IMG/VR virus record: IMGVR_UViG_2645727991_000020
Strand: one strand, 5' to 3'
From: a virus
Lineage: Duplodnaviria > Heunggongvirae > Uroviricota > Caudoviricetes
Length of the DNA: 17,248 nt
The notes below the pieces were generated by a model that made no database searches, had not been told where the DNA came from, and saw only the letters and a list, made by a program, of their open reading frames with translations. Shown piece by piece: positions 634 to 17,248 of the stretch. Position numbers and translations under genes: made by a program. The first letter of the stretch is position 1. Each line of letters begins with the position of its first letter.

Positions 634-1217
634 TGGCATTCAGAATGAGTGAACAACCACGGACCATAAAAATTTATAATCTGCTGGCCGGAACTAATGA
701 ATTTATTGGTGAAGGTGACGCATATATTCCGCCTCATACAGGTCTGCCAGCAAACAGTACCGATATTGCACCGCCAGATATTCCGGCAGGCTTCGTGGCT
801 GTTTTCAACAGTGATGAGGCATCGTGGCATCTCGTTGAAGATCATCGGGGAAAAACCGTCTATGACGTGGCTTCCGGCGACGCGTTATTTATTTCTGAAC
901 TCGGTCCGTTACCGGAAAATGTTACCTGGTTATCGCCGGAAGGGGAGTTTCAGAAGTGGAACGGCACAGCCTGGGTGAAGGATACGGAAGCAGAAAAACT
1001 GTTCCGGATCCGGGAGGCGGAAGAAACAAAAAACAGCCTGATGCAGGTAGCCAGTGAGCATATAGCGCCACTTCAGGATGCTGTAGATCTGGAGATCGCA
1101 ACGGAGGAAGAAACCTCATTGCTGGAAGCCTGGAAAAAATATCGGGTGTTGCTGAACCGTGTTAATACAACAACTGCACCGGATATTGAATGGCCAACAG
1201 TACCCATTATCGAATAG
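633..1217 (+). CDS. tfa: tail fibre assembly protein (lambda Tfa family), 194 aa
   Basis: Protein [51 protein letters not shown]... is near-identical over its length to the lambda/TfaQ-type Tfa sequence as I remember it. The 194-aa length and position immediately after stf with TAATG coupling fit. Confidence 0.9.
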
Positions 1218-1290: not shown

Positions 1291-2622
1291 TTATTTTGAG
1301 TGAATTATCACCTTGTTTTTTCCGGTTCTTTTGGCTTGATATAACGCTTTATCGGCATTGACTAACATTTCAGATGGGCTGAGATTATTCTCTTTTGAAG
1401 TAAAGCAACCAATGCTGACAGTTATTTTCTCAGGTCCATGCGATAATAATTTTTCCGAGCATTGCTCTTCAATGTTTTTTCTGATTCGCTCTGCAATTGA
1501 TAGCAAGAGCTTTTGAGTATTACCTTTAATGATAATACCGAACTCCTCACCGCCTAAGCGCCCTAATACATCCTCTTTCCTGATGGATTTTTTTATTATT
1601 CTGGTAACCATTACTATGACTTGATCACCCATATGATGCCCCCATTTGTCATTGATGCTTTTGAAACTGTCAATATCTAACATTATTACTGAGAAATCAT
1701 GGTGTTTTGATATATTCTTCAATGAGTCAATAAAGTATCTTCTATTGTATGTATTCGTTAGTGGATCATGAATTGCCATATGATTAGCATGATTTAATTT
1801 CCTGAAAACATAATACATGAGTGTTGAAATGATATAAATCATTGATATCAATTCAAGAAATTTTGTCATGTACCATGCAGGATGGGATTTATCAATAAAA
1901 TACAATAAAATTAGATTATTGCATACTGACACTATACTAATAAGTATTATACACAACCATATTTTTGAGTAATTACGTATGCTGATGCATGAGCTGATAA
2001 GTAATACAAGCCAAAATACTGATATTATTTTGGTATACACGATATTCCACGTCGGCAAATGACGATTCAGCGAGTATTGTATAATATTAAGGCTATATTT
2101 TATATTGTCACTGCTTAGATTTTTTGCTACAAACGGAGTAATAAAAAGAATTAATATTGACAAAACAACAATTATTATGTTTCTTTTATCTTCTAAAACA
2201 CTTTTATTTTTAACATTGGTGGAATAAACAGCCAGAAAGATTATAGATATAAAGCTGAACTGACGGAATAGATAATATATTGCGATATCATTTGATTTCT
2301 GATAGATTGTAGATAAATCGTTACCTAACGGAGATAAAGAAATAATAGCCACTTCTAATAAATAATACGTGTTGCTCAAAAACGCGAATGAAAGAATTAA
2401 GAGATAACTTTGTCTCTGATTAGAAACATAGTAAAGCAATAGAAAAATAAAAATCATCAGGTTTATGAAAAAAAGCCCAATAATGAAAATACTATAACTT
2501 ATTTGTGTTGTTTGTGTTATGTATATTCCATTATTTTCATGCAGTAACAAAAATATAATAGAGATGCATGAAAATAAAAAGATGAAGATTTTTATTTTTA
2601 TAGGTACCTGGTTGATAATCAT
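1291..2622 (-). CDS. membrane-anchored GGDEF-domain diguanylate cyclase with a multi-pass N-terminal domain
   Basis: 443-aa ORF. The C-terminal ~170 aa carry the GGDEF signature (RLGGEEFGI) with an RxxD I-site (RKED) shortly upstream. The N-terminal ~270 aa are strongly hydrophobic, consistent with about 6-8 transmembrane helices. The gene is visibly far more AT-rich than its flanks (GC not computed), so a long open frame here is unlikely by chance. Possibly related to prophage-borne DGCs such as DgcX of enteroaggregative E. coli, but I cannot confirm that from memory. Confidence 0.85.
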   Translation of the reverse strand: MIINQVPIKIKIFIFLFSCISIIFLLLHENNGIYITQTTQISYSIFIIGLFFINLMIFIFLLLYYVSNQRQSYLLILSFAFLSNTYYLLEVAIISLSPLGNDLSTIYQKSNDIAIYYLFRQFSFISIIFLAVYSTNVKNKSVLEDKRNIIIVVLSILILFITPFVAKNLSSDNIKYSLNIIQYSLNRHLPTWNIVYTKIISVFWLVLLISSCISIRNYSKIWLCIILISIVSVCNNLILLYFIDKSHPAWYMTKFLELISMIYIISTLMYYVFRKLNHANHMAIHDPLTNTYNRRYFIDSLKNISKHHDFSVIMLDIDSFKSINDKWGHHMGDQVIVMVTRIIKKSIRKEDVLGRLGGEEFGIIIKGNTQKLLLSIAERIRKNIEEQCSEKLLSHGPEKITVSIGCFTSKENNLSPSEMLVNADKALYQAKRTGKNKVIIHSK

Positions 2623-3226: not shown

Positions 3227-6200
3227 TTAATCATCCTCTCCAATATTTAGATTGCTGATAACCTGTGCAGCTTCGTGGTCATAGCCAACCGCTAAATCTC
3301 TTAAGGTAACGGCGAATCGCTGAAAACCAGCGTTTTCCACTTCTTCTGCTTTTGCCCGGAACTGGTCAGCTAGCTCTCTCTCAGGTTTTCCTGTTGGATC
3401 AACACAATAAACACCTCGTGAGTTGTAGGCTCCTGTCATGTAGCCCCTGCGCATACTCTCAGCATCTCGATCGTTGAGAGCAGCTGCGACCTCTCGGTTT
3501 ATCCACAAGCCATTCGGATCGGAGGGAGTATAAATCAAGACTTCACCAACTTTGCTGAGTGCAACGTCCAGGTGACCTGATGCCGTAGAACCCTCCTTAA
3601 CTTTCTGAAGCCATTCAGTAAAGCGTTCTCCGTTGAACGTCCCATTTGATTGGCTTCCTGGCGGTGTCTTCCAGTTGTACAAAAGAGTCCAGGCATTTTT
3701 TGCGATTGCTTTCAATTCATCTGTTGGTTCACTTGTCATATTGTCTTCTTTGTCAGAACGATAAATGAGTTGGATTACTTCGCAGAAAAATTCTGGATCA
3801 TTAGCCATTTTATTCTCAAGGAACTTAGGCACAGCATCTTGGTGACCATCGAGCAATGGAAGGTAAGCCCACTCGATCTGAAAAAGATTATCCGGATTCA
3901 CTTTGGGATCAGTCTGAAGAAATTGGATAAGGGTAGTTATGTTGTAACCATCCATGTTGGAGCTAGATTCGTTAGTTGAAGTGGCAGCAAGCAAAGCGCG
4001 GATACACTGTTCAGTATCGATTGGCTGCTTTGTCTGATGCATCCTGCACAGGCAATTGATTGCCGCAAGTGGTCTGCCATGATCAATCAGCTTATCGATG
4101 GCACTAGTAAGATCACCTTCACCCAGGTCAGGATTTGCATCGGTGCGAGCCCAATATTCGTTCTCGGAAGCTTGAGGATAATGAGAGACTCGGGTCCAGG
4201 TCTCCTTGTTAAAAGGCAGATAAGCAAAGAATTGGCCTAACTGTTCAGGAGTCCAGTCAGCTTTATCCAGATTGTCGAACCACTCCCAGCCTTTGAGATA
4301 GAAACGCTTCCAAATAAAAGCGCTTACCAATGCCTTATACTTATTTTCTTTTGTATTGAGGAAACGGGGCAAAAGAAGTTTTTCGAACACATCATCGTTG
4401 ATAGTGCCGAGTACACTTCCTATTTGATGGGGCGCAGAAACGTGATCTGCAAATCGAATAACGCCTTCTGCGCCATCTTGCCTAAGAATTTCTGATATTG
4501 CGGATTCGCGCCTTGATTCGAGTTTATTTCTCCGTTCTTCCCAATCGCCATTTTCTAAGTAAAGATCAAAATCTCGATTTGAAAAAAGGTGCTGATATAA
4601 GTTGAATGGATTGGTAGGTGCCAGTTGCTCGGCAACATTTTCGATTTTGGTCAGCAGATCATCAGGTAAAGCCCAATTAGCATTAGAGAATCGCCGATGT
4701 TTATTTGCGAATCGATGAAGATGATCCCAAATTACAACTCGCTGCTCTTCATTAAGACAATTAATTGTTTCCGAAGAGAGGTGCTTAAGAAGATGTTCGA
4801 AAGCAGGAGATGGAAGGCTATCAAAATTATCAATCAACAAGGTAAGGCGTTCGATATCTTCTCCAGCGTTTTTGACGGCAAGCTCAGCATAAAAAGATGT
4901 CTGCAACCAGTAATCCTGATTAGTCACTTTGCTTTCCCAATCATCTGGGATTATTCGGCGCCAAGAGGGCTTGTGTGACCCAGAAGAGGTTTGATGGTGA
5001 CCGGGTAGAAGCTGGACGAGTAAATTCCAGGCAATGTCAGGCCATTCCTGCAAGATGACGTTGACTGCAACTTTTCGTTTTTCTATAGATGCCAGCGTTT
5101 GCGGAAACCACGGTAATAATATAGTAGTAAGCGAGTTAGATGGTCGATTAGCCCACTTGCCCCCAGGATCGTGGCTGGCAAGTTCGGCCAGTACAACACA
5201 GACGCGTACTAGGTATTGCTCATCCCAGGCTAATTCTTCTAGAGCCCATAGCAGTCCTGTCAGATAATTACCACCAGTGATACCATTTACTTCTTGAGAA
5301 AAAAGCTCATCAAATACACAAGGAGTCTGACGCATTGCCTTCTCAACTGCATCAAGAAATTTTGCAGGAGCTGCTTCAGCCAAAGTTGGTAGCAAACCGT
5401 TTAGGCTACCCCATAAAACCCAGTTTGCATCAGTCAAAATTGTATGTATTGCGACGTTAACGGAAGTTTCAGCATTCCCCTGAGAGCAGTTAACGCAAAC
5501 CTCTGGCCGACTCCCGATTATGGCTAAACCCTCTGCTATACCTTGTCGCAGCGTGGATGAAAACTTCAGCACCTTACCATGAATACTAGCAGCGTAACGC
5601 TCTTCAGCAGGTAATTCGAAAGCAGGGTCTGGCTCTTTGAGTACGGAAATCGCGGAAGACTTAAACAATTCAAGATTCTGATCAAAAATGCGGGATCCAA
5701 GAAGACTCCATAGCTCCATTCGATTTGTTACTTTCCAAATGCCGTTTTTTAGGGACAAAGGACTGTCTGGGCTATGTAAAATCTCTCGAGCCTTCCTTAG
5801 CCATTCGTCATAGCTGATACCAAGCAATTGGGTTAGTACATTTCGGTCACACTCATTTTTATCATTCCATTGCCCAATCAACACTGCTAAGGCTAAATAA
5901 GAGGCATCTGGGTGGTGAGTCCAGTCGGTTTTGACTACCGGTTGTACTAACCTCAACTTCTCAGGTATTTCAGCAATAACCCTTTGTTTGAAAACATCTA
6001 AAAGATCTTCAGGTAGCTTACTTGAAATGATAGTGCCAGCATCTTTATTCCAAGTTTGTACGATATCAACTATCCGCGACCAAACCCACTGAGGATACTG
6101 TTGATGGAATTGCGCTATGTGGGAGTGCAGCAAAGAAAGGACGACGCCTGATTCATTACCCAGATCGTACCCTAGTAAATGGAAATGGTTCAAAAAGTCA

Positions 6201-6775
6201 TAAAGCTCATCGTTTGTTAAATCGTTCCCACTGTTTGCCATCTTCAGATGAAACTGGATGGTCTCCAGTTTCTCAGTACTTTTAGGCGGGCTGAACTTGG
6301 CTTTTTGAACGTTCCTCAAAAATTCATCGACTGTTTTTGTGTGTCTAGCCTGATTCAATAACCAGAGCACATTGTGTGTATCGGTCGAACTGAGCGGACC
6401 GGTGATCAGTGCAATAACATCCTTGTTCTTGGTAAACAAGTCAGGATTGTTGAAATCGTTCCAAGCAGCCTGTATAACTTCCCCAAGTATCGCATTACCT
6501 TGCGTAAATGAAATAGAATGCTTTATTTGTCCTAATAGCTTCCGTTTTTCATTTCTGTTGAAATCTTTAACAACGACGATCAAGTCGTCGGTATCAAAAC
6601 CATCAATCTTGCCCTGGAGATTTATCTCCACTATGGGCCAACAAGGAAGACAAGGTGCATTACCGCCTGTTAGCATTAGAGCAACAAAAGACGCTTGGAC
6701 ATGTGCTTCAAAATGAACACCGCCTCCGCCTGTAGAAAAAGGATTACTCAAATTTTTTTTATTTGTCATTAACAA
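3227..6775 (-). CDS. large hypothetical protein (~1,180 aa), function unknown; candidate phage-defence or effector cargo
   Basis: Uninterrupted 3.5-kb ORF. The track start at 6775 is TTG; the first ATG is at 6769 (MTNKKNLSNPF...). Stop TAA at 3227-3229. I found no Walker A GxxxxGK[ST] and no other catalytic signature I can name. The N-terminus has a Gly-rich loop (STGGGGVHFEAH), a CxxC (CLPC) and an acidic-hydrophobic strand (GFDTDDLIVVVKD); a second CxxC (CVNC) lies near residue 430; the remainder is Trp/Leu-rich and probably helical. Product is unassigned. Confidence 0.85.
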   Translation of the reverse strand: MLMTNKKNLSNPFSTGGGGVHFEAHVQASFVALMLTGGNAPCLPCWPIVEINLQGKIDGFDTDDLIVVVKDFNRNEKRKLLGQIKHSISFTQGNAILGEVIQAAWNDFNNPDLFTKNKDVIALITGPLSSTDTHNVLWLLNQARHTKTVDEFLRNVQKAKFSPPKSTEKLETIQFHLKMANSGNDLTNDELYDFLNHFHLLGYDLGNESGVVLSLLHSHIAQFHQQYPQWVWSRIVDIVQTWNKDAGTIISSKLPEDLLDVFKQRVIAEIPEKLRLVQPVVKTDWTHHPDASYLALAVLIGQWNDKNECDRNVLTQLLGISYDEWLRKAREILHSPDSPLSLKNGIWKVTNRMELWSLLGSRIFDQNLELFKSSAISVLKEPDPAFELPAEERYAASIHGKVLKFSSTLRQGIAEGLAIIGSRPEVCVNCSQGNAETSVNVAIHTILTDANWVLWGSLNGLLPTLAEAAPAKFLDAVEKAMRQTPCVFDELFSQEVNGITGGNYLTGLLWALEELAWDEQYLVRVCVVLAELASHDPGGKWANRPSNSLTTILLPWFPQTLASIEKRKVAVNVILQEWPDIAWNLLVQLLPGHHQTSSGSHKPSWRRIIPDDWESKVTNQDYWLQTSFYAELAVKNAGEDIERLTLLIDNFDSLPSPAFEHLLKHLSSETINCLNEEQRVVIWDHLHRFANKHRRFSNANWALPDDLLTKIENVAEQLAPTNPFNLYQHLFSNRDFDLYLENGDWEERRNKLESRRESAISEILRQDGAEGVIRFADHVSAPHQIGSVLGTINDDVFEKLLLPRFLNTKENKYKALVSAFIWKRFYLKGWEWFDNLDKADWTPEQLGQFFAYLPFNKETWTRVSHYPQASENEYWARTDANPDLGEGDLTSAIDKLIDHGRPLAAINCLCRMHQTKQPIDTEQCIRALLAATSTNESSSNMDGYNITTLIQFLQTDPKVNPDNLFQIEWAYLPLLDGHQDAVPKFLENKMANDPEFFCEVIQLIYRSDKEDNMTSEPTDELKAIAKNAWTLLYNWKTPPGSQSNGTFNGERFTEWLQKVKEGSTASGHLDVALSKVGEVLIYTPSDPNGLWINREVAAALNDRDAESMRRGYMTGAYNSRGVYCVDPTGKPERELADQFRAKAEEVENAGFQRFAVTLRDLAVGYDHEAAQVISNLNIGEDD

Positions 6776-6914
6776 TCACATCCACATTTTGATTACGAAT
6801 AGATGAAAAAGAAGAGCACTCATACTTCAGAACTTATTCCACCTATATCTTTTAAAGACACTGTTATGCCTAGCATTTACGTAGATTAGCTAGCTCTCGG
6901 GTAATGACTCCAAC

Positions 6915-7418
6915 TTACTGATAGTGTTTTATGTTCAGATAATGCCCGATGACCTTGTCATGCAACTCCACCGATTTTGAGAACGACAGTGACTTCCGTC
7001 CCAGCCTTGCCAGATGTTGTCTCAGATTCAGATTATGTCGCTCAATGCGCTGCGTATATCGCTTGCTGATAACGTGCAGCTTTCCCTTCAGGCGTGATTC
7101 ATACAGCGGCCAGCCATCCGTCATCCATACCACGACCTCAAAGGCCGACAGCAGGCTCAGAAGACGCTCCAGTGTGGCCAGAGTGCGTTCACCGAAGACG
7201 TGCGCCACAACCGTCCTCCGTATCCTGTCATACGCGTAAAACAGCCAGCGCTGACGTGATTTAGCACCGACGTAGCCCCACTGTTCGTCCATTTCAGCGC
7301 AGACAATCACATCACTGCCCGGTTGTATGCGCGAGGTTACCGACTGCGGCCTGAGTTTTTTAAGTGACGTAAAACCGTGTTGAGGCCAACGCCCATAATG
7401 CGTGCACTGGCGCGACAT
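6915..7418 (-). CDS. insB: IS1 transposase InsB (expressed natively as an InsAB' frameshift fusion)
   Basis: 167-aa product ...[58 protein letters not shown]... matches IS1 InsB with a few substitutions. It overlaps the 3' end of insA as expected for programmed -1 frameshifting. Confidence 0.9.
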
Positions 7419-7612
7419 CCGACGCCATTCATGGCCATATCAATGATTTTCTGGTGCGTACCGGGCTGAGAGGCGGTGTAAGTGAACTGTAGTTGCCATG
7501 TTTTACGGCAATGAGAGCAGAGATAGCGCTGATGTCCGGCAGTGCTTTTGCCGTTACGCACCACGCCTTCAGTAGCGGAGCAGGAAGGACATCTGATGGA
7601 AATGGAAGCCAC
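7337..7612 (-). CDS. insA: IS1 protein InsA (zinc-finger DNA-binding regulator)
   Basis: 91-aa product [68 protein letters not shown]... matches IS1 InsA. Confidence 0.9.
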
Positions 7613-7667
7613 GCAAGCACCTTAAAATCACCATCATACACTAAATCAGTAAGTTGGCAGCATTACC

Positions 7668-9283
7668 AAATCATCAATAACGAAAGCTGGTTATGTTCTC
7701 CGTTAAGCGTTATCGGTACTGGCAGAGACGATAAAGACCAGTATCTCATTCTTCGCTGGCTGTCGTTTGGTTCTGAAACGCCGACAACCGCTGCCATTCC
7801 ACTGGCTGATATTGGTGAACGTGAAGGATGGCGCACACTTAAAGCTGGTGGGGTAAATGTCACGACCAAAAGCAGCCTCAGAGCAATACTGGCAGACTGG
7901 CTACAACGCAGTGGCTCTCGTGAATTGTGGCGTGTTGCTCATGCCACTGGCTGGCAATGCGGAGCGTACATCATGCCTGATGGGGAAATCATCGGAACAC
8001 CTGAAAATCCTGTGCTGTTCAGCGGGAGAAGCTCAGCCGCAGCCGGATATACCGTCTCAGGGAGCGCGAAAAGCTGGCGTGATAACGTGGCGCGTCTGGC
8101 CTTTGGTAACTATTCAATGATGACCGGGATCGGCGCAGCACTGGCAGCGCCATTGATTGGGCTGGTGGGCGCTGACGGGTTCGGCATTCATTTCTATGAG
8201 CAGTCGAGCGCAGGTAAGACCACCACGGCAAACGTGGCGAGCAGCTTATACGGCAACCCTGATTTACTGCGGCTGACGTGGTACGGAACCGCGCTGGGGC
8301 TGGCAAATGAGGCCGCCGCCCACAATGACGGACTAATGCCGCTTGATGAAGTTGGTCAGGGCGCTGATCCTGTCAGCGTTTCACAGTCTGCCTATGCGTT
8401 ATTTAACGGTGTAGGGAAACTGCAAGGCGCTAAAGATGGTGGAAACCGGGATCTAAAACGCTGGCGTACAGTGGCAATCAGCACCGGAGAAATGGATTTA
8501 GAAACATTTATCGCTACTTCCGGGCGAAAAACCAAAGCCGGGCAACTGGTGCGACTGCTGAATATTCCGTTGAGTAAAGCAGTACGCTTTCACGATTACC
8601 AGAACGGAAAACAGCACGCAGACGCACTGAAAGACGCTTACCAGCATCACCACGGCGCAGCCGGGCGTGAGTGGATTAAATGGCTGGCAGACCACCAGCA
8701 ACAGGCTATTAAAACCGTTCGTGATTGCGAAAGCAGATGGAGAAACCTGATCCCATCCGATTATGGTGAGCAGGTTCACCGTGTAGCCGCGCGATTTGCC
8801 ATTCTGGAGGCCGCATTGCTGTTAGGCGAGGTTGTAACAGGCTGGGATGCTCAGACATGCCGTGATGCGATACAGCACAGCTATAACGCATGGTTGCGCG
8901 AGTTCGGCACAGGTAACAAAGAACATCAGCAGATTATTGAACAAACGGAGGCATTTCTTAATGCCTATGGGCTTAGCCGTTTTGCACCATTTCCATACAG
9001 CCCGGCAGATTTGCCCATCAAAGATTTAGCCGGATACCGTCAGCGTGGAGAACATGACGAAAGCCCAATGATTTTCTACACATTCCCGGCCACATTTGAA
9101 AAGGAGATCGCATGTGGTTTCAACGCAAAACAGTTTGCTGAAGTGTTGAAAAAAGCCGGGATGCTAACCCCACCAAACAGCGGTCGTGGATACCAAAGAA
9201 AATCACCACGTATTCAGGGACGACAAATAAACGTTTATGTACTCAATTACCAGCCAGGAGATTATAACTCATCTGAAGAATGA
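7668..9283 (+). CDS. P-loop NTPase replication protein of mobile-element type (tentatively DUF927 family), 5'-truncated by IS1; probable pseudogene
   Basis: The track ORF 7493..9283 begins inside IS1. Native sequence starts at the IS1 boundary (7668) with no in-frame ATG until 7973 (IMPDGEIIG), yet the intervening 100 codons read as genuine protein. Walker A-like YEQSSAGKTTT and Walker B-like GLMPLDEVGQ are present. The gene ends about 20 bp before iteron cluster A. Confidence 0.6.
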
Positions 9284-9301
9284 GCTTCTTCATGTGCGTA
9301 G

Positions 9302-9422
9302 AAAAGGTGTTGGTTCAGTTGGTTCAGTTGGTTCAATTTATAAAGGGTATTGTTTTATAAGGATTTTATTCTTTTTATTGAACCAACACTGAACCAACAA
9401 CACGGTATTTTGAACCAACACA
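9302..9422. repeat. iteron cluster A (origin-like)
   Basis: Three tandem 9-bp repeats ttggttcag / ttggttcag / ttggttcaa (about 9310-9336), an AT-rich spacer of roughly 40 bp, then three inverted copies tgaaccaaca (9379-9420). Confidence 0.7.
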
Positions 9423-9469
9423 ATGTGACTGAATTGATGCGCACAACACCTGGCTGGCATCAGAGAGTG

Positions 9470-9546
9470 TTTTACGAGACTTTCGTAAAATCCTGTGTAC
9501 AAGGGCGTGACGTTTTTGAAAGTGAGCACTACGAAATTTTCGTAGT
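9470..9546. promoter_or_regulatory. pair of TACGA-N5-TCGTA palindromes (candidate operator sites)
   Basis: ttttacgaGACTTtcgtaaaa (9470-9490) and actacgaaATTTtcgtagt (9528-9546) share identical half-sites TACGA / TCGTA with 5-bp spacers, centres about 57 bp apart. Confidence 0.4.
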
Positions 9547-9737
9547 TCAAAAAACAGCCTCTGAGAAGTTGTTATGCCTGTTCAGCAAACCATCCGCATA
9601 GCTGATCGCGAATCAAATTACCAATGGAGCCAGAAGCAAGGGCAGAACTGAAAAGCGCCTGCCGTGAAGAGTAATGCGACACCATAAATATAGTTTTTAG
9701 AGTCCATAAAAAACCTGTCAAAACCTGACACACAGAA

Positions 9738-9773
9738 CGACGCCACCAGCTACTGAGCGGTGGCATTTTTTTG
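9738..9773 (+). terminator. putative rho-independent terminator (plus strand)
   Basis: GC-rich stem gccacc (9742-9747) / ggtggc (9759-9764) followed by a run of seven T (9766-9772). It sits between the iteron/operator region and the downstream operon. Confidence 0.45.
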
Positions 9774-9867
9774 TGCTATTTGTTTCATATTCTGCAATTA
9801 CGATGATGAATATTGCGATTTGTGAAACTATAATAACTGTTGTTTTATACAGTTATAAGGGGGCGTT

Positions 9868-10029
9868 ATGGCTATTTCAGTAAAGCCGGTATTGATAAGT
9901 GAGAAGCAAATGGAAGCGATAAAGAAAATTCAGGAAGAGCAGCGTAAAAAATCAGGAATTGGAGTAGCGCCAACTCTGCATGAAATTGCACGAGGGTTAA
10001 TAGATAAGGCGCTGGCAGGCTGTATGTGA
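9868..10029 (+). CDS. small hypothetical protein (53 aa), possibly a ribbon-helix-helix-like DNA-binding protein
   Basis: Not in the supplied track (below its length cut-off). ATG at 9868 with a strong Shine-Dalgarno AAGGGGG 6 nt upstream; product MAISVKPVLISEKQMEAIKKIQEEQRKKSGIGVAPTLHEIARGLIDKALAGCM; TGA at 10027-10029. It sits 16 bp upstream of the four-gene operon. The RHH assignment is a guess from the strand-then-helix pattern. Confidence 0.45.
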   Translation: MAISVKPVLISEKQMEAIKKIQEEQRKKSGIGVAPTLHEIARGLIDKALAGCM

Positions 10030-10045
10030 AAATGGATGGCATCGC

Positions 10046-10507
10046 ATGGAACTAAAATTTATTGATAACCCTGTGCGATTACAGGCCTTTCTTAACGAGC
10101 CAGGCAATACCGAAAATATTGTTGAGCCGGGGCACACGTACTACATCAAGCCTGATGCGGTATATCTCGGCATCTACGAAGGATTAGTGCTGGCTGGCGT
10201 TCATGAAGTGCGTAACTTCTGGCATAGCGTTGTTGAATGCCATGCGGTGTACGACCCCGGATTCCGTGGTGAATATGCACTGCAAGGGCATCGATTATTC
10301 TGCAAATGGCTTCTCGAAAACTCACCATTCCTTAACAGCATCACTATGGTTCCTGACACCACGAAATATGGACGGGCAATTATCCGTTTGCTTGGCGCTA
10401 CCCGTGTTGGTCACCTTGATGATGCTTATATCAGATGTGGTAAACCCGTCGGCGTAACGCTTTATCAGTTAACTCGGCAACAATATAAGGAATTCAGCGA
10501 ATGTTAA
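10046..10507 (+). CDS. hypothetical protein (153 aa), first gene of a translationally coupled operon
   Basis: ATG at 10046; its stop (TAA 10505-10507) overlaps the next start (ATGTTAA). No motif recognised. Confidence 0.7.
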   Translation: MELKFIDNPVRLQAFLNEPGNTENIVEPGHTYYIKPDAVYLGIYEGLVLAGVHEVRNFWHSVVECHAVYDPGFRGEYALQGHRLFCKWLLENSPFLNSITMVPDTTKYGRAIIRLLGATRVGHLDDAYIRCGKPVGVTLYQLTRQQYKEFSEC

Positions 10508-11178
10508 TTACCCATATAGCTCATAAACATCTCAATCGTGCCGTATACGAAAAAGGCGGTGATGGTGGTGCCTCTAAAGCTCAGGCGAAGGCCCAGCAGC
10601 AGGCAATTGATTTGCAGCGCGAGCAGTGGAATACGGTGATGAATAATCTCAAGCCGTATGCAGAAGTCGGATTGCCTGCTTTACAACAACTGCAAGGACT
10701 GATGACTCTGGAAGGGCAGAATAAAGCCGCGAATGATTTCTTTGGTTCTGGTTTATATAAAACACAGGCAGATCAGGCCCGTTATCAGAACCTTGTCTCA
10801 GCAGAAGCTACCGGGGGGCTTGGCTCAACAGCTACCAGTAACCAGTTATCTTCCATTGCGCCCATGCTTTATAACAATTGGCTCAGTGGGCAAATGCAAA
10901 ATTATGGAAACCTGCTAAATGTCGGGATGAATGCGGCATCAGGGCAGGCAACAGCAGGGCAAAACTACGCCAATAATACCGGGCAACTCTTGCAGGGGCT
11001 TGGCGCTATTCGTGCAGGTCAGGCGCAGCAGCCATCCAGTCTTGCGCGTGGTATTGGTGGGGCGGCATCAGGCGCTTTAGCGGGTGCGCAACTTGGTTCC
11101 GTTGTTCCGGGTATAGGTAATGTCGCCGGGGCTATTGGTGGTGGGCTTATTGGTCTTGTTGGGGGGCTTGGATTCTAA
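10501..11178 (+). CDS. hypothetical protein (225 aa) with Gly-rich hydrophobic C-terminus; possible virion ejection/injection protein (P22 gp7-like by size and position)
   Basis: Start overlaps the upstream stop; C-terminus GIGGAASGALAGAQLGSVVPGIGNVAGAIGGGLIGLVGGLGF is membrane-active-like; Gln/Ala-rich low-complexity middle. The homology call is inference only. Confidence 0.7.
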   Translation: MLITHIAHKHLNRAVYEKGGDGGASKAQAKAQQQAIDLQREQWNTVMNNLKPYAEVGLPALQQLQGLMTLEGQNKAANDFFGSGLYKTQADQARYQNLVSAEATGGLGSTATSNQLSSIAPMLYNNWLSGQMQNYGNLLNVGMNAASGQATAGQNYANNTGQLLQGLGAIRAGQAQQPSSLARGIGGAASGALAGAQLGSVVPGIGNVAGAIGGGLIGLVGGLGF

Positions 11179-12599
11179 TGGCGACATGGCAACTTGGCGG
11201 GCTGCCTAGCATGGCACCGCAAAATGATAATGCTCCTCGTTCTTCCGTTCCTCAGCCTGTGCAGTATCAGCAGCACCCAAACGTAGGTTTAATGGCGCTA
11301 CAGGGGCTAAGAGGCGTTGCTGAGATTAATCAGCAGGCACGTCAACAACAGCGTAAAGCAGAGTTTCAGAAAGCATATGCCGGGGCTTTTGAGTCTGGAG
11401 ACAGAAACAAAATGCGCAGTCTTATTTCTGAGTATCCAGAAGAATTTGAAAGCGTTCAGAAAGGGATGGGCTTTATTGATGACGACCAGAGAAATTCTAT
11501 TGGTCATCTTGCGACTAGTGCTCAAATCGCATCTTCGCTCGGAACTGGGGCATTTGGAAAATTCATAGCAGATAACGAAGATGAAATGCGTCGCTTGGGA
11601 ATTTCTCCTGAGTCTGTTGCCGAAATGCATGTTAATGATCCACAGGGATTCCAGCGGCTTGCTGGTAGTATGGCACTGTTTTCTCTCGGTCATGAGAAGT
11701 ATTTCGATATCAAAGATCAAATGGAAGGTCGGGATATTGAGCGTGGCAAGTTGGCAGAGACAATCCGCAGCAATCAGGCTGGCGAAGCACTTCAGGCGAG
11801 AGGGCAGGATATTAGCCGAGCAAATGCGTTAACGTCAGCATATGCACCAACAGCAGCAATGCAGAATTACAATCAGTACGCTCAAATGTTAAAGGCGGAT
11901 CCAGAGGGGGCGGCGGCATTTGCGGCAGCGGCTGGAATTAATACAAACGCCAAAAAATTAATGAGTGTTAGAGAAAACGATGATGGCACTGTCACAAAAT
12001 ACTACACAGACGGAAGTGAAGAGCAGGGAAAACTAAACCAGCCAATATCTGGAGATGGGTTTCGTCCAATAGCTTTGCCAACAGCCCAAAAGATCATGGA
12101 AAAGTCGCCAGAAGGGGCTAAAAAAGCTGCTGGATTTGCATACAGGGTTAGGGATGCTCTTGATTCAATAGATACACTGAAAGACCAGCTTAGCCCACAG
12201 CGAGTGGCGATCATTAATAATGCTTTGGGTAATGGGACGCTGGCTAACTTAACGCTCAGCCCAACAGAGCAGCAATACGTTGTTAATGCTAATGACGCAA
12301 TAATGGCAATACTCCGTCAGGAAACAGGGGCAGCTATCGCACCTGCTGAAATGTCAAAATATTATCAAATGTATTTCCCTCAGCCTGGCGACTCCACAAA
12401 AACCATTGATACCAAGCGCCGGAAGATGGAAAACCAGTTCAATTCGCTGAAAGCTGCTTCTGGTCGAGCTTATGATGCTTTGCGGGTTATTTCAGCAGTT
12501 GACAGAGGAACTTCTTCTTCGTCGCAGACATTGCCGCAATCTGAGCAGGTATCACAGCCAGCAGCCAGCAGTAACTTTTCTTCACTATGGGGTGATTAA
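11178..12599 (+). CDS. hypothetical protein (473 aa); possible virion ejection protein (P22 gp20-like by size and position)
   Basis: TAATG overlap with the upstream gene; hydrophilic, Ala/Gln/Glu-rich. The size matches my recollection of gp20 at about 471 aa. Inference only. Confidence 0.7.
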   Translation: MATWQLGGLPSMAPQNDNAPRSSVPQPVQYQQHPNVGLMALQGLRGVAEINQQARQQQRKAEFQKAYAGAFESGDRNKMRSLISEYPEEFESVQKGMGFIDDDQRNSIGHLATSAQIASSLGTGAFGKFIADNEDEMRRLGISPESVAEMHVNDPQGFQRLAGSMALFSLGHEKYFDIKDQMEGRDIERGKLAETIRSNQAGEALQARGQDISRANALTSAYAPTAAMQNYNQYAQMLKADPEGAAAFAAAAGINTNAKKLMSVRENDDGTVTKYYTDGSEEQGKLNQPISGDGFRPIALPTAQKIMEKSPEGAKKAAGFAYRVRDALDSIDTLKDQLSPQRVAIINNALGNGTLANLTLSPTEQQYVVNANDAIMAILRQETGAAIAPAEMSKYYQMYFPQPGDSTKTIDTKRRKMENQFNSLKAASGRAYDALRVISAVDRGTSSSSQTLPQSEQVSQPAASSNFSSLWGD

Positions 12600-14704
12600 T
12601 GGCTAAAGCATGGAAAGATGTTATCGCCTCTCCACAGTATCAGGCGTTAGCACCAGAACAAAAAGCGCAGGCTCAGGAGCAATACTTCAATGAAGTCGTT
12701 GCCCCGCAAGCCGGAGAAAGTGTAGAGCAGGCTAAGCAGGCTTTTTATGCTGCCTATCCACTACCATCAACGAATGAAATAGACCGATCCCAATCAGCAA
12801 CTCAAAATATTCAACATACATCATCTGATAATTCTCTTGCGTCAGGGTATGCAAAGTTAGCTACTCAGCAAAGAGAGGGGCTTGAGCGTTCAGCAGAACA
12901 GGGAGCCAGTCTTGGGGCTGCGATGCGCGATGCTATAACAGGCGAAAGCCGAATGACTCCAGAGATGGAGAGACTGCAAAATGTCACCTCTGCCCCAGAA
13001 TTGAACTCACTAAGCATGGATGCCCTAAAGGCTGGATGGTCTCAACTTTTCGGCTCTGACGCGTCTCAGGAAAAGATTCTTCAGGGAATGGGGGCGACAT
13101 TAAGGCAGGATGAGAAGGGGAATACTATCGTTTCTCTGCCATCAGGTGATTATGCCCTGAACAAGCCGGGTTTATCACCGCAAGACCTGACTTCGTTTCT
13201 TGCTAATGCGTTGGCGTTTACACCAGTGGGCAGGGCTGGAACGGTGCTTGGTGCCATAGGAAAATCAGCAGCTACAGATTTAGCACTACAGGGAGCCACC
13301 AGCCTTGCTGGTGGAGAAGATATTGATCCGTTACAAACGGTAATTTCTGCTGGCATTGGTGGTATTGGTAAGGGGCTGGAAAATACAGCGAGTGCGGTTT
13401 CGAGGGCTGTTCGTGGTGATATGTCGCCTGAAGCAAAGGCTGCTGTCGACTTTGCATCGGAAAGAAATCTGCCGTTAATGACCAGTGACATGCTGAAAGA
13501 TAAAACCTTTATGCAGAGTCAGGCTCAGACATTAGGCGAAAGAGTTCCTTTTTTTGGAACCGGTAAGAATCGGCTGAATCAACAACAAGCACGAGAAAAT
13601 TTAGTCAGAACATTTAGCGATGGTCTGGGTGGCATTTCTGATAAACAGCTTTATGAATCTGCGACTAAAGGGCAACAAAAATTCATTGAGGCAGCAGGAA
13701 AGCGATATAACCGCATAATTGACGCTATGGGGGATACCCCTGTCGATCTCTCAAACACGGTAAAAGCTATCGACAATCAGATTGCCGTGTTAAGCCGCCC
13801 GGGCAAATCTCAGGATAGAGCCGCGGTAAAAGTCTTGCAGCAATTTAAAGACGATATCACCAGCGGACCAAATGACCTGCGTCTGGCGAGGGAAAACAGA
13901 ACCGATCTTCGAAAGCGATTTATGGCGTCATCTGACACTGTTGATAAAGATACGCTCCAGAAAGCCAGCGATATTATCTACAAGGCATATACGGCGGATA
14001 TGAAAAAAGCCGTAGCCAAAAATCTTGGAGCAGACGAAGCCATTAATATGGCAAGGGTTGATCGCTCATGGTCTAAATTCAATGATATGATGGGAAGAAC
14101 GCGCGTTCAAAAGGCAATAGCCAGCGGCAAGGCCACGCCTGAGGATGTAACAAAACTCGTTTTTAGCCAAAGCCCATCAGAACGTTCTCAGCTTTACAGG
14201 CTTCTGGATGACAATGGTAGGCAAAACGCACGAGCAGCCATAGTTCAGAATGCTGTAGATAAGGCGACTGATCCGTCTGGAAATATCAGTGTTGAGAAGT
14301 TTATTAATGCGTTACACCGGAACAGGAAGCAATCAGCAACTTTCTTTAAAGGCGTACATGGAAAGGAACTGGACGGCGTTATTAAATACCTCAACGATAC
14401 AAGACACGCGGCAAAAGCGAACGTTCAAAACTTAAATGGTCAGCAGCTTTATGGATTGTTAGTTGGTGGTGGCATCATAAACGCAGCAGTATTAGCGGGG
14501 ATGCTAAAAACGGCTGCGTTTGTTGTTCCTGCTGCTGGTGCCGTAGGCGGAGCAGCGAAGGCATACGAAAGCCCTGTTATACGAAATGCCTTGTTACGTC
14601 TGGCAAATACGCCAAAAGGTAGCACAGCATATGACAGAGCGATCAGTACGGTCACACAATCGCTCACCAGAGTCGCACAGGCATCACAAAAAGAAGCTCA
14701 ATAA
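12599..14704 (+). CDS. hypothetical protein (701 aa) with C-terminal hydrophobic segment; possible virion ejection protein (P22 gp16-like by position)
   Basis: TAATG overlap with the upstream gene; a hydrophobic stretch LYGLLVGGGIINAAVLAGMLKTAAFVVPAAGAVGGAA lies near the C-terminus; stop TAA at 14702-14704 is followed by a hairpin and T-run. Confidence 0.7.
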   Translation: MAKAWKDVIASPQYQALAPEQKAQAQEQYFNEVVAPQAGESVEQAKQAFYAAYPLPSTNEIDRSQSATQNIQHTSSDNSLASGYAKLATQQREGLERSAEQGASLGAAMRDAITGESRMTPEMERLQNVTSAPELNSLSMDALKAGWSQLFGSDASQEKILQGMGATLRQDEKGNTIVSLPSGDYALNKPGLSPQDLTSFLANALAFTPVGRAGTVLGAIGKSAATDLALQGATSLAGGEDIDPLQTVISAGIGGIGKGLENTASAVSRAVRGDMSPEAKAAVDFASERNLPLMTSDMLKDKTFMQSQAQTLGERVPFFGTGKNRLNQQQARENLVRTFSDGLGGISDKQLYESATKGQQKFIEAAGKRYNRIIDAMGDTPVDLSNTVKAIDNQIAVLSRPGKSQDRAAVKVLQQFKDDITSGPNDLRLARENRTDLRKRFMASSDTVDKDTLQKASDIIYKAYTADMKKAVAKNLGADEAINMARVDRSWSKFNDMMGRTRVQKAIASGKATPEDVTKLVFSQSPSERSQLYRLLDDNGRQNARAAIVQNAVDKATDPSGNISVEKFINALHRNRKQSATFFKGVHGKELDGVIKYLNDTRHAAKANVQNLNGQQLYGLLVGGGIINAAVLAGMLKTAAFVVPAAGAVGGAAKAYESPVIRNALLRLANTPKGSTAYDRAISTVTQSLTRVAQASQKEAQ

Positions 14705-14708
14705 CTGG

Positions 14709-14731
14709 TTAGCCATGGATGGCTAATTTTT
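14709..14731. terminator. putative terminator shared by the convergent operon and membrane-protein gene
   Basis: Palindrome ttagccat-gg-atggctaa (14709-14726) followed by TTTTT (14727-14731), directly after the stop of the 701-aa gene and overlapping the stop of the minus-strand gene. Confidence 0.4.
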
Positions 14732-15142
14732 GTTCTTTGCTCTCATCCATAGGTAAAGAAGGGAAAGAACAAGACAAAAAACAGAGAATAGATAACCTAC
14801 CTCATATGGTGCGCCAAAAAAATTAGCTATTGATACGGGCAAAAAAGCTGAGGCGATCAAAATTGAAAGGCAAAAAATAAGCCCAGTAATATAGTTTATT
14901 AAATTCTTAAATGAGAAACGTTTTGCTTGATTTACGGTCTTAACGAACGATCGCTTAACGACGGATAAAAGCAAATAGATGGCGACAGTTGCTAATGCCC
15001 CTTTCCACCAGTCTGGATATAGTTTTGCGACAATCAGACCAAGGAAAACCATGATGACAGCCTGAGCATTCACACCAACCCTCCCTTTAGCTTTGTTTAG
15101 AATGGCAATCATCATATATCCAAGACATGGCATTTGGTACAT
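14723..15142 (-). CDS. small integral membrane protein (about 115-139 aa); candidate superinfection-exclusion-type moron
   Basis: Three to four hydrophobic helices (VIMVFLGLIVAKL, ATVAIYLLLSVV, ITGLIFCLSILIASAFL, LFSVFCLVLSLLYLW). The likelier start is an in-frame GTG at 15073, preceded by AGGGAGG, rather than the track ATG at 15142. Convergent with the operon. Confidence 0.6.
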   Translation of the reverse strand: MYQMPCLGYMMIAILNKAKGRVGVNAQAVIMVFLGLIVAKLYPDWWKGALATVAIYLLLSVVKRSFVKTVNQAKRFSFKNLINYITGLIFCLSILIASAFLPVSIANFFGAPYEVGYLFSVFCLVLSLLYLWMRAKNKN

Positions 15143-16106
15143 AGCTTGGGTCGGGATTTCAAATCCGATCCCCGTTGATGGGGCCGTTACAGTACGCGCA
15201 TATCCGCTTTATGTGAAACAGGAAGATTTTTCTGATATCACTGCCACAGCAAAACACCAATTTCGAGACAAGTACGCGCGCGAGGGGTATCAGTTGCAAA
15301 AAATTTTGCAACTACGTCCGACCAGTATGCACACGATGGCGGAGGGATACCATAAAACTGTTCTCTACATGAGACAGAGTGGTGGTGATGTGTTGATTAT
15401 CGGCGTATATGCGCACAGGACGCGCTATGACGATGTTTTATGCGGGTACACCAATCACATGTATCTGGTGTGATAAATCGCGTTACATGACCTCTCATGT
15501 TGTACTGGTGGTTATCACGACGTTCTGAATCTGGCCTTTGCCTGGTATTTTGCGACAAGTACGCGCGCGTAGCATCGAAATAATCGGATGGCGTATGCTG
15601 CTGGTAATATGAAGACCGATAGCATTAACCGTAAGGAGAAAGACTTCTCGATAACGGCAAGGGGGCTGAATTGCGAGGCGAGATTAAGCAACTGTCTTGA
15701 ACGTAAAAATCATGGAGCAACATGATGGTACGATTCATTCCATTCTTCGTTCTTTCTGAGCATTGCGTTCAGGCTTAGTCAAAATTAGTGTTGCGAGCGG
15801 ACCTATTAGTAATTGTTGGTGCGATGCGTCTGTTATGGATTGTTATGGTTGTGGCAGGCCTGATTAATATCCAGTATGACCACCAGCTATGAGAGGCCAC
15901 CTCAGTGGTTCGCAGTTGCAGGTTTGCACTCAGGTTCGCAGGGTTTTGGCTACTTTCACGTGCGAACCTGCAGAATTGCAAAGGACAACTAAGTCCTCTG
16001 GCCAACTCCCGGTTTATGAGCGACACAGTCCGCCTGGCGCATCGTTTTCGTCGAGTGCGCCCATCAGCTTGTCCATGGACTATCCACCACTCGATATTAA
16101 AGCTAA

Positions 16107-16292
16107 TCATTGGTTGCCAGCCCGCGAATCAAGTTTGTTCTGGATCCAAGCTTCAACCTCCTCAAGCGACCATCTAGCTGATCTACCAATTTTAACTGGC
16201 TGTGGAAACGTGCCCGTCTTAACCCATGAGTAGATTGCCGTTTTCTTGAAGCCCGTTCTGAGCATGACTTCGCTTAATTTGATAAGGCGCAT
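16107..16292 (-). CDS. alpA: AlpA-family phage regulatory protein (MerR-like DNA-binding / excisionase-type)
   Basis: 61-aa product MRLIKLSEVMLRTGFKKTAIYSWVKTGTFPQPVKIGRSARWSLEEVEAWIQNKL has the AlpA helix-turn-helix signature. A strong SD (GAGGAG) lies upstream of the ATG at 16292. Confidence 0.85.
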   Translation of the reverse strand: MRLIKLSEVMLRTGFKKTAIYSWVKTGTFPQPVKIGRSARWSLEEVEAWIQNKLDSRAGNQ

Positions 16293-16341
16293 AGAGGCTC
16301 CTCTGCTTTAGATTAAGCATAGTGACAATCTGGCTTTGGGT

Positions 16342-16376
16342 GGTATCCAAAAGCGAGGTATCCATGTTGGTATCCA
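16342..16376. promoter_or_regulatory. three direct GGTATCCA repeats in the alpA upstream / divergent promoter region
   Basis: GGTATCCA at 16342-16349, 16357-16364 and 16369-16376 (spacing 15 and 12 bp), 50-85 bp upstream of the alpA start. A second direct pair TTCACGCA lies near 16455-16475. Confidence 0.35.
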
Positions 16377-16543
16377 CCAAAACGCTGTTTACCAAAAAGT
16401 TACCACCGGAACAGGACATTTTGAGCTGTAACTTAACACATAGCATATGGAGTTCACGCATAGACTTCACGCACAACGGCTCTGGCCAGTGAAGAATCAC
16501 CCTGGCTAGCAATATAATGCCGATCACCATCAGAGGGGAATCC

Positions 16544-16735
16544 ATGACACCACGAGAAATCGAGCTGCTGACCATTGCCAAGCTGGAGCATGGCGGCCAC
16601 CAGCTCAGCCCGGCAGAACTGCGGGAATTAAGGCGCCAGCTGGCAGAGGGCCCTGTAATAGCCAGGCGGTACCGCGAAATGATGACCAGCCCCGCATATC
16701 GCTGGAGCAAACCAGCGCCGCTCCGTGCGCGGTGA
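16544..16735 (+). CDS. small hypothetical protein (63 aa), divergent from alpA
   Basis: ATG at 16544 with SD AGAGGGG upstream and a TATAAT-like hexamer at 16513-16518; product MTPREIELLTIAKLEHGGHQLSPAELRELRRQLAEGPVIARRYREMMTSPAYRWSKPAPLRAR. The track start at 16517 is an in-frame upstream ATG without an SD. No family recognised. Confidence 0.45.
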   Translation: MTPREIELLTIAKLEHGGHQLSPAELRELRRQLAEGPVIARRYREMMTSPAYRWSKPAPLRAR

Positions 16736-16807
16736 GCAGCACCTAACCAGCACTAGACAAGCCCTGTGCTGGTGGATGTCCCTCATAATTAGCGGTTTTT
16801 AAACGGC

Positions 16808-16936
16808 GTGTTGGTTCACGGCCTCTTTTTGTTGGTTCAAAAATGGGGTGTGTTGGTTCACTTTTTGCGAATAATTCTTTTAAAAACAATACTCTTTACA
16901 AATTGAACCAACTGAACCAACTGAACCAACACCTTT
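16808..16936. repeat. iteron cluster B (origin-like), inverted relative to cluster A
   Basis: Three loosely spaced ttggttca copies (16811-16858), an AT-rich spacer, then three tandem 9-bp tgaaccaac repeats (about 16904-16930). The reverse complement of 16901-16938 is identical to 9302-9339 over about 38 bp, with further similarity beyond. Confidence 0.7.
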
Positions 16937-16966
16937 TTGCTTATCTATATAATCTGAGAGGCAGAA

Positions 16967-17248
16967 ATGATAAGGGACAGGAAAGCTGAAGAGCTGGAGT
17001 CAAAAGGGCTATACCGGAGAGCTGCCGCACGATGGATGGAAGTCATGCTGTTATGCACCGAGGACGATGATCGGGAATGGATAAAGCGCCGCCGTGAAAC
17101 GTGTCTGGAGAACGTGAAGCGCCCGCCCGTGAAGGTTGAGGAATTTGGCGACCTGCATAAAGCTGTTACCGAAACGCAACACCGCATGGGGATAGCGCAA
17201 CCGAACGGTAACGCCTTCCGGTTAAATGGCGGCAAGAGGCAAAGGTAG
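16967..17248 (+). CDS. probable PerC-family transcriptional regulator (93 aa)
   Basis: Product MIRDRKAEELESKGLYRRAAARWMEVM... fits the N-terminal pattern I associate with PerC/Pch regulators (AEELE.KG..RRAA.RW). SD GAGAGG and a TATAAT lie just upstream; the stop TAG is the last three bases of the window. Family call from memory only. Confidence 0.5.
   Translation: MIRDRKAEELESKGLYRRAAARWMEVMLLCTEDDDREWIKRRRETCLENVKRPPVKVEEFGDLHKAVTETQHRMGIAQPNGNAFRLNGGKRQR

Follow-up and report, generated by a model that had tools for sequence, protein, structure and literature searches.

A PerC-family gene and a second origin-like iteron module in the remnant of an EcCIMP1-type island

What is a gene for a PerC-like regulator doing directly beside a repeat cluster that resembles a replication origin, and could the one be controlled by the other? 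The question is raised by the last few hundred nucleotides of a Caudoviricetes sequence of 17,248 nucleotides (IMG/VR record IMGVR_UViG_2645727991_000020), the whole of which is called the window here. A first-pass annotation, made from the sequence alone, had proposed a PerC homologue at this end of the window, and had suggested that a mobile element might thereby activate the LEE type III secretion regulon of its host, with expression possibly linked to the replication state of the element. We consider it highly probable that the locus as a whole is best explained as a PerC-family gene that belongs to a phage-inducible chromosomal island (PICI) of the EcCIMP1 type, encodes a putative protein-protein regulator and lies beside a second copy of the island origin, the island itself being an IS1-truncated remnant. 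This explanation draws on the protein family, the identity with EcCIMP1_025, the homology of the two modules, the gene order in related islands and the covariation of iterons with primase, all of which were observed in the present analysis.

The PerC-family protein and its effect on LEE

The gene lies at the very end of the window, the TAG stop of its 93-codon reading frame being the final codon:

16967..17248, plus strand: gene for a small regulator of the PerC family (ANR-like), 93 aa, Pfam PF06069

Judged by sequence, its product is a member of the PerC family. It matches the PF06069 (PerC) profile with 104.5 bits (E 3.7e-30; profile positions 1-85 of 90), the gathering cut-off being 22.6 bits, and can be aligned over its full length with EPEC PerC and EHEC PchA, the founders of the family, N-terminal motif and conserved Cys included. 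Identity amounts to 37% over 75 aa with PerC of EPEC E2348/69 plasmid pMAR2 (L003; E 7e-21), 36% over 89 aa with PchA of prophage Sp4 of O157 Sakai (L005; E 3e-18), and 54% over 76 aa with PchE of Sakai Sp7/OI-51 (L026). The motif A..LE.KG.YRRAA.RW is invariant across the window protein, PerC and PchA, and the invariant residues of this alignment are A7, L10, E11, G14, R17, R18, A19, R22, W23, R36, C46 and R85. The proposed homology, which was to be given up if alignment to PerC and the Pch proteins showed no significant similarity, is borne out by the Pfam score together with the full-length alignments.

The N-terminal half of PerC-family proteins (about 50 residues) also appears, from profile matches, to be homologous to the ANR (AraC-negative-regulator) family. 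The NCBIfam model NF033650 (ANR_neg_reg) matches residues 5-50 of the window protein with 31.1 bits (E 1.6e-7), against a cut-off of 32; a Klebsiella homologue that is 78% identical to the window protein (P0018) scores 32.5 bits, and EPEC PerC and PchA score 18.2 and 13.6 bits, respectively. The subfamily of the window protein would therefore be the most ANR-like of those tested, and its formal ANR membership is borderline. The ANR proteins Aar of EAEC and Rnr of C. rodentium/EPEC are alike in that LEE repression and binding to H-NS/Ler fit the phenotype of EcCIMP1_025 described below. On the other hand, the window protein is longer than the 54-position model and carries an extra PerC-type C-terminal helix, and all PerC-family members tested give weaker ANR matches, which points to a superfamily relation rather than membership.

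An AlphaFold2 model built with 26 homologues (mean pLDDT 80, about 90 over residues 1-50) predicts a helical bundle with helices at 5-13, 16-29, 33-50 and 61-74. A Foldseek search of this model against the PDB returned nothing significant, the best matches being MIT/TPR-like three-helix bundles at E of about 0.9 or worse, and a profile search of PDB sequences with the window protein gave no meaningful match. As modelled, it would be a small all-helical protein with no sign of a recognisable DNA-binding fold.

The gene is already known and has been studied as EcCIMP1_025. The helper phage Kapi1 mobilises EcCIMP1, a PICI of the commensal E. coli strain MP1 (Pick, Stadel & Raivio, ISME J 2025; PMC11773190). 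The translation of the window gene is identical to those of the genes in MP1 and in EHEC O111:H- 11128, all being WP_000617443.1 (RefSeq name 'PerC family transcriptional regulator'), which at the MP1 locus (L025) is the only PerC-family gene within the published EcCIMP1 coordinates. The window and MP1 share 98.9% DNA identity over 7668-11338 and 15148-17248, and many E. coli chromosomes, that of strain 11128 among them, match 16300-17248 with 100% DNA identity.

One reading of the gene is that it encodes a LEE1 (ler) activator of the PerC/PchABC type, through which the island would raise type III secretion in LEE-positive hosts. It accords with the clear PerC-family membership, with the motif A..LE.KG.YRRAA.RW that PerC and PchA have in common, and with the presence of the identical gene in EHEC O111:H- 11128, a LEE-positive strain. 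However, when EcCIMP1_025 was expressed in Citrobacter rodentium together with a LEE1-lux fusion, the fusion was silenced in a dose-dependent manner, whereas the same assay showed activation by EPEC perC (PMC11773190). The silencing was obtained by plasmid over-expression in a heterologous host, and its authors suggested that EcCIMP1_025 behaves like an ANR-family repressor (PMC11773190). The window protein is, moreover, only 36-37% identical to the activators but 54% identical to PchE, reportedly a curli repressor that does not activate LEE; PchD likewise gave no activation of LEE1/ler (PMC6265319). According to Porter (2005), as cited in PMC11773190, LEE1 fusions did not respond to the PerC homologues that PICIs encode in EDL933 and CFT073. 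The same gene order also recurs in Pantoea, Erwinia and Lonsdalea, as described below. To our knowledge, plant-associated genera such as these are not LEE carriers, which argues that the native role of the PerC-like protein is not the control of LEE.

The activator reading is thus largely refuted, and we hold it to be very improbable. The experiment that the first-pass annotation had proposed, activation of a ler promoter fusion, had its counterpart in the literature already, with the opposite sign. The broader suggestion that a mobile element here influences virulence regulation survives in part, in that LEE is affected by the identical protein, and fails in its direction, which is silencing and not activation. 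An annotation-style inference is corrected in this way, as the PerC-family label alone does not imply a LEE activator. The question is then less one of virulence cargo than of the use that satellites make of PerC/ANR-like proteins, where counter-silencing or re-silencing of the island or of the helper phage through H-NS are candidate roles.

PerC (BfpW, EPEC pEAF) and PchA/B/C resemble the window protein in Pfam family, length class and N-terminal motif, and are thought to act by relieving or altering H-NS silencing (PMC4764244). They differ from it in being plasmid- or lambdoid-prophage-borne with no adjoining origin, in their low identity (36-37% for PerC and PchA), and in activating LEE1, which an identical copy of the window protein silenced. 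Pch relieves H-NS/StpA/Hha silencing at LEE1 via H-NS exclusion (PMC4764244), H-NS is bound by Aar (PMC5570504), and Rnr binds both H-NS and Ler, with LEE being repressed (PMC10148876). By analogy with these proteins, the window protein is most likely a protein-protein modulator of nucleoid and virulence regulators, which is our best mechanistic guess. We infer that it would contact regulators of the kind reported for PerC, Pch and ANR proteins (H-NS/StpA, Ler and AraC-type activators) and that such contacts would alter the occupancy of AT-rich promoters by these regulators, the published outcome for EcCIMP1_025 being LEE1 silencing.

The island remnant and its two iteron modules

The location in a mobile element, as initially proposed, was confirmed, the element being an EcCIMP1-like PICI. 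Apart from the iteron modules, its recognisable parts upstream of perC are as follows:

about 6898..7667, minus strand: IS1 copy that interrupts the primase gene and takes the place of the island half from integrase to Ash (Pfam IS1 transposase; terminal inverted repeats)
7668..9283, plus strand: 3' part of the TOPRIM/DUF927 primase-helicase gene (Pfam DUF927; homology to the intact element from 7668)
10046..14704, plus strand: cargo, comprising DUF2824 and P22 gp7-, gp20- and gp16-like DNA-ejection protein genes (Pfam, PHROGs)
16107..16292, minus strand: alpA_1, the second AlpA/excisionase-family gene of EcCIMP1-type islands (PF05930, E 1.9e-13; PHROG excisionase families)
16544..16735, plus strand: ORF63, unannotated, 63 aa (tblastn/blastn matches in L001, L002 and L007-L013)

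The full-length primase has 918 aa (L002). The window retains it from codon ~381, about 380 N-terminal residues having been lost together with the Zn-ribbon and Toprim domains, and where the integrase-to-Ash part of the island would be, there are unrelated prophage, GGDEF and hypothetical genes. The full set that marks a complete island (integrase, canonical alpA, AntA/Ash, full primase and att repeats) is absent from the window; complete EcCIMP1-type islands are L002 and L025. The survivors are perC, alpA_1 and both iteron modules. The island in the window is a non-autonomous remnant and, since the primase is truncated, nothing in the window can replicate autonomously. Among complete E. coli genomes, none matches 80% or more of the window.

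EcCIMP1 itself has the identical PerC protein and the same neighbours, namely alpA_1, the second module, and the primase with the first module. In contrast to EcCIMP1, the window is without integrase, canonical alpA, antirepressor, Ash and the primase N-terminus, and its gp20/gp16 and membrane-protein cargo is not the same; the cargo at 10046-14704 is present in EcCIMP1 with a variant middle part. The two origin copies of the EcCIMP1 type are separated by ~7.4 kb, which hold a small RHH-like gene, DUF2824, the gp7/gp20/gp16-like genes, a variable gene, alpA_1 and ORF63. The alpA_1 gene is divergent from ORF63 and perC; it is dispensable for the island cycle and can replace the xis of the helper phage (PMC11773190). 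ORF63 has no match in Pfam, NCBIfam or PHROG. The idea that it is a remnant of the primase C-terminus was rejected, since in complete elements perC is followed by a 61-aa gene of which ORF63 is a paralogue (62% identity). Scanned with Rfam over its whole length, the window gave only IS009 at 976-1174, and nothing near perC.

The exact 9-mer TGAACCAAC occurs 13 times in the window, where 0.09 copies are expected from dinucleotide-preserving shuffles, none of which reached 13. All but one of these copies (12 of 13) fall within two modules, 9309-9419 and 16810-16930:

9309..9419, no strand assigned: first module, made up of three contiguous GTTGGTTCA, a 43-bp spacer (84% A+T) and three TGAACCAAC spaced by 11 and 21 bp; canonical PICI origin position
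16810..16860, minus strand: spaced arm of the perC-proximal module, three GTTGGTTCA at 16810, 16831 and 16852 with 21-bp spacing, GTTGGTTCA being the reverse complement of TGAACCAAC
16861..16903, no strand assigned: spacer of the perC-proximal module, 43 bp, 79% A+T, a putative melting region that aligns with the first-module spacer
16904..16930, plus strand: contiguous arm of the perC-proximal module, three TGAACCAAC with 9-bp spacing; in L012 and L013 the same triple stands immediately before ssb or perC

The origin of Gram-negative PICIs has been described as two iteron sets flanking an AT-rich region, immediately 3' of the pri-rep gene (Fillol-Salom et al. 2018; PMC6092414). Iterons around an AT-rich region are found in both modules of the window. 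The position 3' of pri-rep is that of the first module, which begins 26 bp past the primase stop codon, and not of the perC-proximal one, which has ORF63 and perC as its neighbours and is 7.5 kb distant from the primase gene. When reverse-complemented, the perC-proximal module can be aligned from end to end with the first module, and likewise with the origins of related islands belonging to five other genera; in this alignment the iterons are invariant and the spacers variable, and a 10-nt insertion between two iterons is the sole structural difference. The first module is orthologous to the module intervening between primase and perC in L013-L015, L018 and L019, and both modules are kept in the mobilisable EcCIMP1 of MP1 and in the complete island of strain XJW9B263. 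By alignment, the perC-proximal module amounts to a second copy of the island origin, complete and inverted, and it could be a recombination scar. The origin-like module that had been postulated beside perC is therefore present in full, with three iterons, a 43-bp AT-rich spacer and three inverted iterons, homologous to the first.

In phage P4, ori and crr are two separated clusters of one iteron, and the window likewise has two separated clusters of the same iteron. The likeness to Gram-negative PICI origins lies in the two iteron sets around an AT-rich region and in the first module directly 3' of the primase-helicase gene. The window differs from both systems in that its second module repeats the entire origin in inverted orientation, 7.4 kb away and beyond the genes for phage ejection proteins.

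Gene order in related satellites and the reading of the iterons

A scan with one genome per species yielded 19 loci encoding relatives. The order primase, iterons, (ssb), perC is found in L006-L015, L018, L019 and L021, as well as in OI-51 of Sakai. In Enterobacter adelaidei, Lonsdalea, Pantoea, Chimaeribacter and Erwinia, a Zn-ribbon/Toprim/DUF927 primase of 918-937 aa is followed by a TGAACCAAC module and perC; Shimwellia, Kluyvera, two Enterobacter species and Atlantibacter have primase, origin region, ssb and perC in this order. The iterons of the type TGAGACAACA were examined in three islands (L006 of Shimwellia, L008 and L010 of Enterobacter), whose origins have the layout of the TGAACCAAC origins with a different iteron. 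O157 Sakai OI-51 shows the order primase, iterons TGCGGGTTA/TAACCCGCA, an 83-aa gene, ssb and pchE, and in L012, L013 and OI-51 an inverted second iteron set directly follows the first. By this synteny, perC is an early and conserved member of the post-origin operon of this satellite lineage, and its position in the window would follow the conserved order primase, origin, (ssb), perC, which makes it the probable first or second gene of that operon.

The closest named Pch protein, PchE (ECs1588, Sakai Sp7/OI-51 = EcCIEDL933), is also PICI-encoded, lies downstream of the primase, and has an iteron origin upstream that is laid out as a doubled inverted set. It differs in its TAACCCGCA iterons, in the 83-aa gene and ssb between origin and pchE, and in its island, which is of the capsid-forming type with head and terminase genes.

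Given this neighbourhood, the PerC-like protein might be supposed to assist replication as an accessory factor, by recognising the iterons or the AT-rich spacer. The gene is next to the origin in many lineages, Pch has been reported at many chromosomal sites (PMC4764244), and H-NS, which Pch displaces at LEE1, binds AT-rich DNA. However, PerC identity does not track iteron type. PerC homologues that are 79-94% identical accompany TGAGACAACA iterons, whereas those of the TGAACCAAC islands are only 49-56% identical in L014, L015, L018 and L019, and up to ~80% in L012 and L013. Furthermore, ssb or other genes may intervene between origin and perC, PerC homologues occur on plasmids and lambdoid phages that have no such modules, and the model of the protein gives no indication of a DNA-binding fold. 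Binding of the iterons by PerC was rejected on the first of these grounds, and we regard a role as accessory factor as scarcely credible.

The primase behaves otherwise. For the greater part of their length, the primases of E. coli, L012 and L013 are nearer to the TGAGACAACA group than to the Pantoea/Erwinia group, and this pattern of relationship changes in the last ~45 alignment columns. There, the primases of all TGAACCAAC islands read ...QRKSPRI(Q/N)xRQxNVYV..., and those of the TGAGACAACA islands ...QGRVRE(G/D)GRQIRVYV.... Iteron type covaries with this C-terminal motif across 10 islands, the motif of the window being QRKSPRIQGRQINVYV, and OI-51 combines a third iteron type with a third primase version, ...KKKALGKIGGKQHVFYV.... 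The alpha protein of P4 carries a C-terminal origin-binding domain and, by analogy, the covariation supports the primase C-terminus as the reader of the iterons. As the covariation is with the primase motif and not with PerC, it also argues against PerC as the origin-binding factor. The iterons beside perC are accordingly predicted, in our proposal, to be binding sites of the primase-helicase and not of PerC. The doubled origin and the iteron-tracking primase motif offer simple handles on replication specificity in these islands.

The perC upstream region and the role of the second module

The last contiguous TGAACCAAC copy ends at 16930, so that the 93-aa reading frame does follow the iteron cluster closely, as had been described, with 36 bp between that copy and the ATG. 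Within this interval lies:

16948..16960, plus strand: TATAAT at 16948-16953, then the Shine-Dalgarno sequence GAGAGG at 16955-16960 (read from the sequence)

The 'good SD and -10' of the first-pass annotation holds to the extent that both GAGAGG, 6 nt from the ATG, and TATAAT are present. The two are, however, separated by just 1 nt, and a transcript from that -10 would begin inside or after the Shine-Dalgarno sequence. The TATAAT has no -35 hexamer, the -35 position being occupied by the last iteron, 17 bp upstream of it, and a scan of 16050-17248 for sigma-70 promoters and terminators found no full promoter and no terminator. With the promoter scan empty, the 'good -10' cannot be called a promoter.

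A comparable arrangement recurs in related islands. Contiguous iterons, 10-17 nt, CTATATA(TA)TAA(T), TGAG(A/G)nGGCA and ATG form a unit that precedes ssb in L012 and perC in L013, and the same unit of iterons, TATA-rich box and Shine-Dalgarno sequence precedes ECs1586 in O157 Sakai OI-51, where the iterons are unrelated. By comparison of these islands, the layout of iterons, TATA-rich box, Shine-Dalgarno sequence and first gene is thus a conserved unit, and its conservation suggests function. With primase on the iterons, the post-origin operon might be either repressed or activated; just as possibly, the TATA-rich box is part of the origin and perC is transcribed by read-through from the promoter region of ORF63. 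Because the last iteron sits at the would-be -35 position, the suggested link between perC expression and replication state is plausible. That primase binds the iterons, and that perC transcription might respond to such binding, are both inferences of ours.

These considerations bear on whether the perC-proximal module is a relic or a working cis element, that is, a replication site or a perC operator. In the first version, it would be a second site like the crr of P4, needed for replication or limiting it by handcuffing or primase titration; in the second, it would be an operator, with primase at the -35 position controlling perC. In both versions the global regulator would be linked to induction of the island. 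The six iterons and the 43-bp spacer are all intact, and both modules are retained in the mobilisable EcCIMP1 of MP1. Lonsdalea (L014) likewise has two inverted modules, 5.9 kb apart; in L012, L013 and OI-51 the inverted second iteron set has contiguous copies at its end and directly precedes a conserved TATA-rich box and the first post-origin gene; and the last iteron of the window stands at exactly 17 bp from TATAAT. Against this, the loci of Pantoea, Erwinia and Chimaeribacter have a single module within 6 kb, three of the six iterons are degenerate in the second Lonsdalea copy, and the orientation of perC relative to the module varies between lineages. Little can be read from the conservation of the E. 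coli copies, whose near identity comes from recent spread. On balance, we find a working module possible but doubtful.

Its strongest form, drawn by analogy, is that the second module acts as a functional primase-helicase site, like the crr of P4 or the copy-control iterons of P1/F, and couples perC to induction, which we think rather unlikely. If it were true, an ANR-like global regulator directed at H-NS would be turned on or off by induction of the helper phage and replication of the island, and the virulence and silencing programmes of the host would be coupled to the life cycle of the satellite. As a corollary, the origins of Gram-negative PICIs would generally be doubled, inverted and splittable by cargo.

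In the EcCIMP1 paper, the terms 'iteron' and 'origin of replication' are absent (0 occurrences each; PMC11773190). Modest new points are also the primase C-terminal motif that covaries with the iterons, the conserved layout of iterons, TATA-rich box and first gene, and the unannotated paralogue of 63 aa. That the origin is doubled and inverted, with cargo between its copies, and that it adjoins the upstream region of perC, are in our view minor undescribed details of modest weight.

Truncated replication gene and variable cargo

6898-7667, IS1 insertion, cutting the TOPRIM/DUF927 primase-helicase gene
10046-14704, P22 gene 14 family (DUF2824) and homologues of ejection protein gp7, gp20 and gp16 (Pfam, PHROGs)
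14723-15142, minus strand, gene for a 139-aa membrane protein

The IS1 insertion has shortened the TOPRIM/DUF927 primase-helicase gene (7668-9283) by about 380 codons, and the island in the window is without its integrase-to-Ash half; the element is therefore a non-autonomous remnant. Because 11339-15147, which takes in the middle part of the cargo, differs from its counterpart in EcCIMP1 of Escherichia coli MP1, it is a variable cargo slot lying between the two iteron modules. The DUF2824, gp7-, gp20- and gp16-like genes are listed as "DNA transfer" candidates for packaging in the EcCIMP1 paper (PMC11773190).

The region around alpA_1 and ORF63

16544-16735, plus strand, 63-aa ORF (ORF63) with a good SD, lacking RefSeq annotation
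16341-16376 and 16447-16472, extra short repeats in the divergent alpA_1/ORF63 intergenic region

ORF63 had no family match in Pfam, NCBIfam or PHROGs, and a 61-aa gene located after the PerC-family gene perC in complete islands (WP_000188903.1) is its paralogue, with 62% identity. In strain XJW9B263, which carries a complete island, RefSeq annotates an antisense ORF (WP_000234451.1) directly upstream of ORF63, spanning the intergenic region that separates it from the AlpA/excisionase-family gene alpA_1. The repeats of this region include three copies of TGGTATCCA (or AGGTATCCA), together with the direct repeat GAGTTCACGC/GACTTCACGC, and they may serve as operators for AlpA_1 or another regulator. 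Between the membrane-protein gene and alpA_1, about 1 kb (15143-16106) contains short overlapping ORFs only; none of the matched RefSeq genomes has a gene annotated there, and Rfam gave no match.

Iterons and primases of related islands

The OI-51/Sp7 island of O157 Sakai (NC_002695) shares, at 1600700-1601120, the doubled, inverted iteron layout of the window, with a different iteron 9-mer, TGCGGGTTA/TAACCCGCA. At the end of this layout, contiguous iterons lead into a CTATATATATAAAT box and then an SD, which precedes the first post-origin gene; ssb and pchE come next. In sister islands of Shimwellia (L006) and Enterobacter (L008, L010), the iteron is TGAGACAACA (about 5160-5470), and the primase C-terminal motif QRKSPRI..RQxNVYV is replaced by QGRVRE.GRQIRVYV, making this motif a candidate specificity determinant.

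Sequence to the left of IS1

1291-2622, minus strand, MASE4-GGDEF diguanylate cyclase gene
3227-6775, minus strand, 1182-aa ORF

Both lie in the stretch that runs from the prophage tail-fibre genes to the IS1 copy, and the latter has no Pfam match. The tail-fibre assembly gene (633-1217) contains a match to Rfam IS009 (225 bits; 976-1174, plus strand), and a single isolated exact copy of TGAACCAAC occurs at 3723, inside the 1182-aa ORF.
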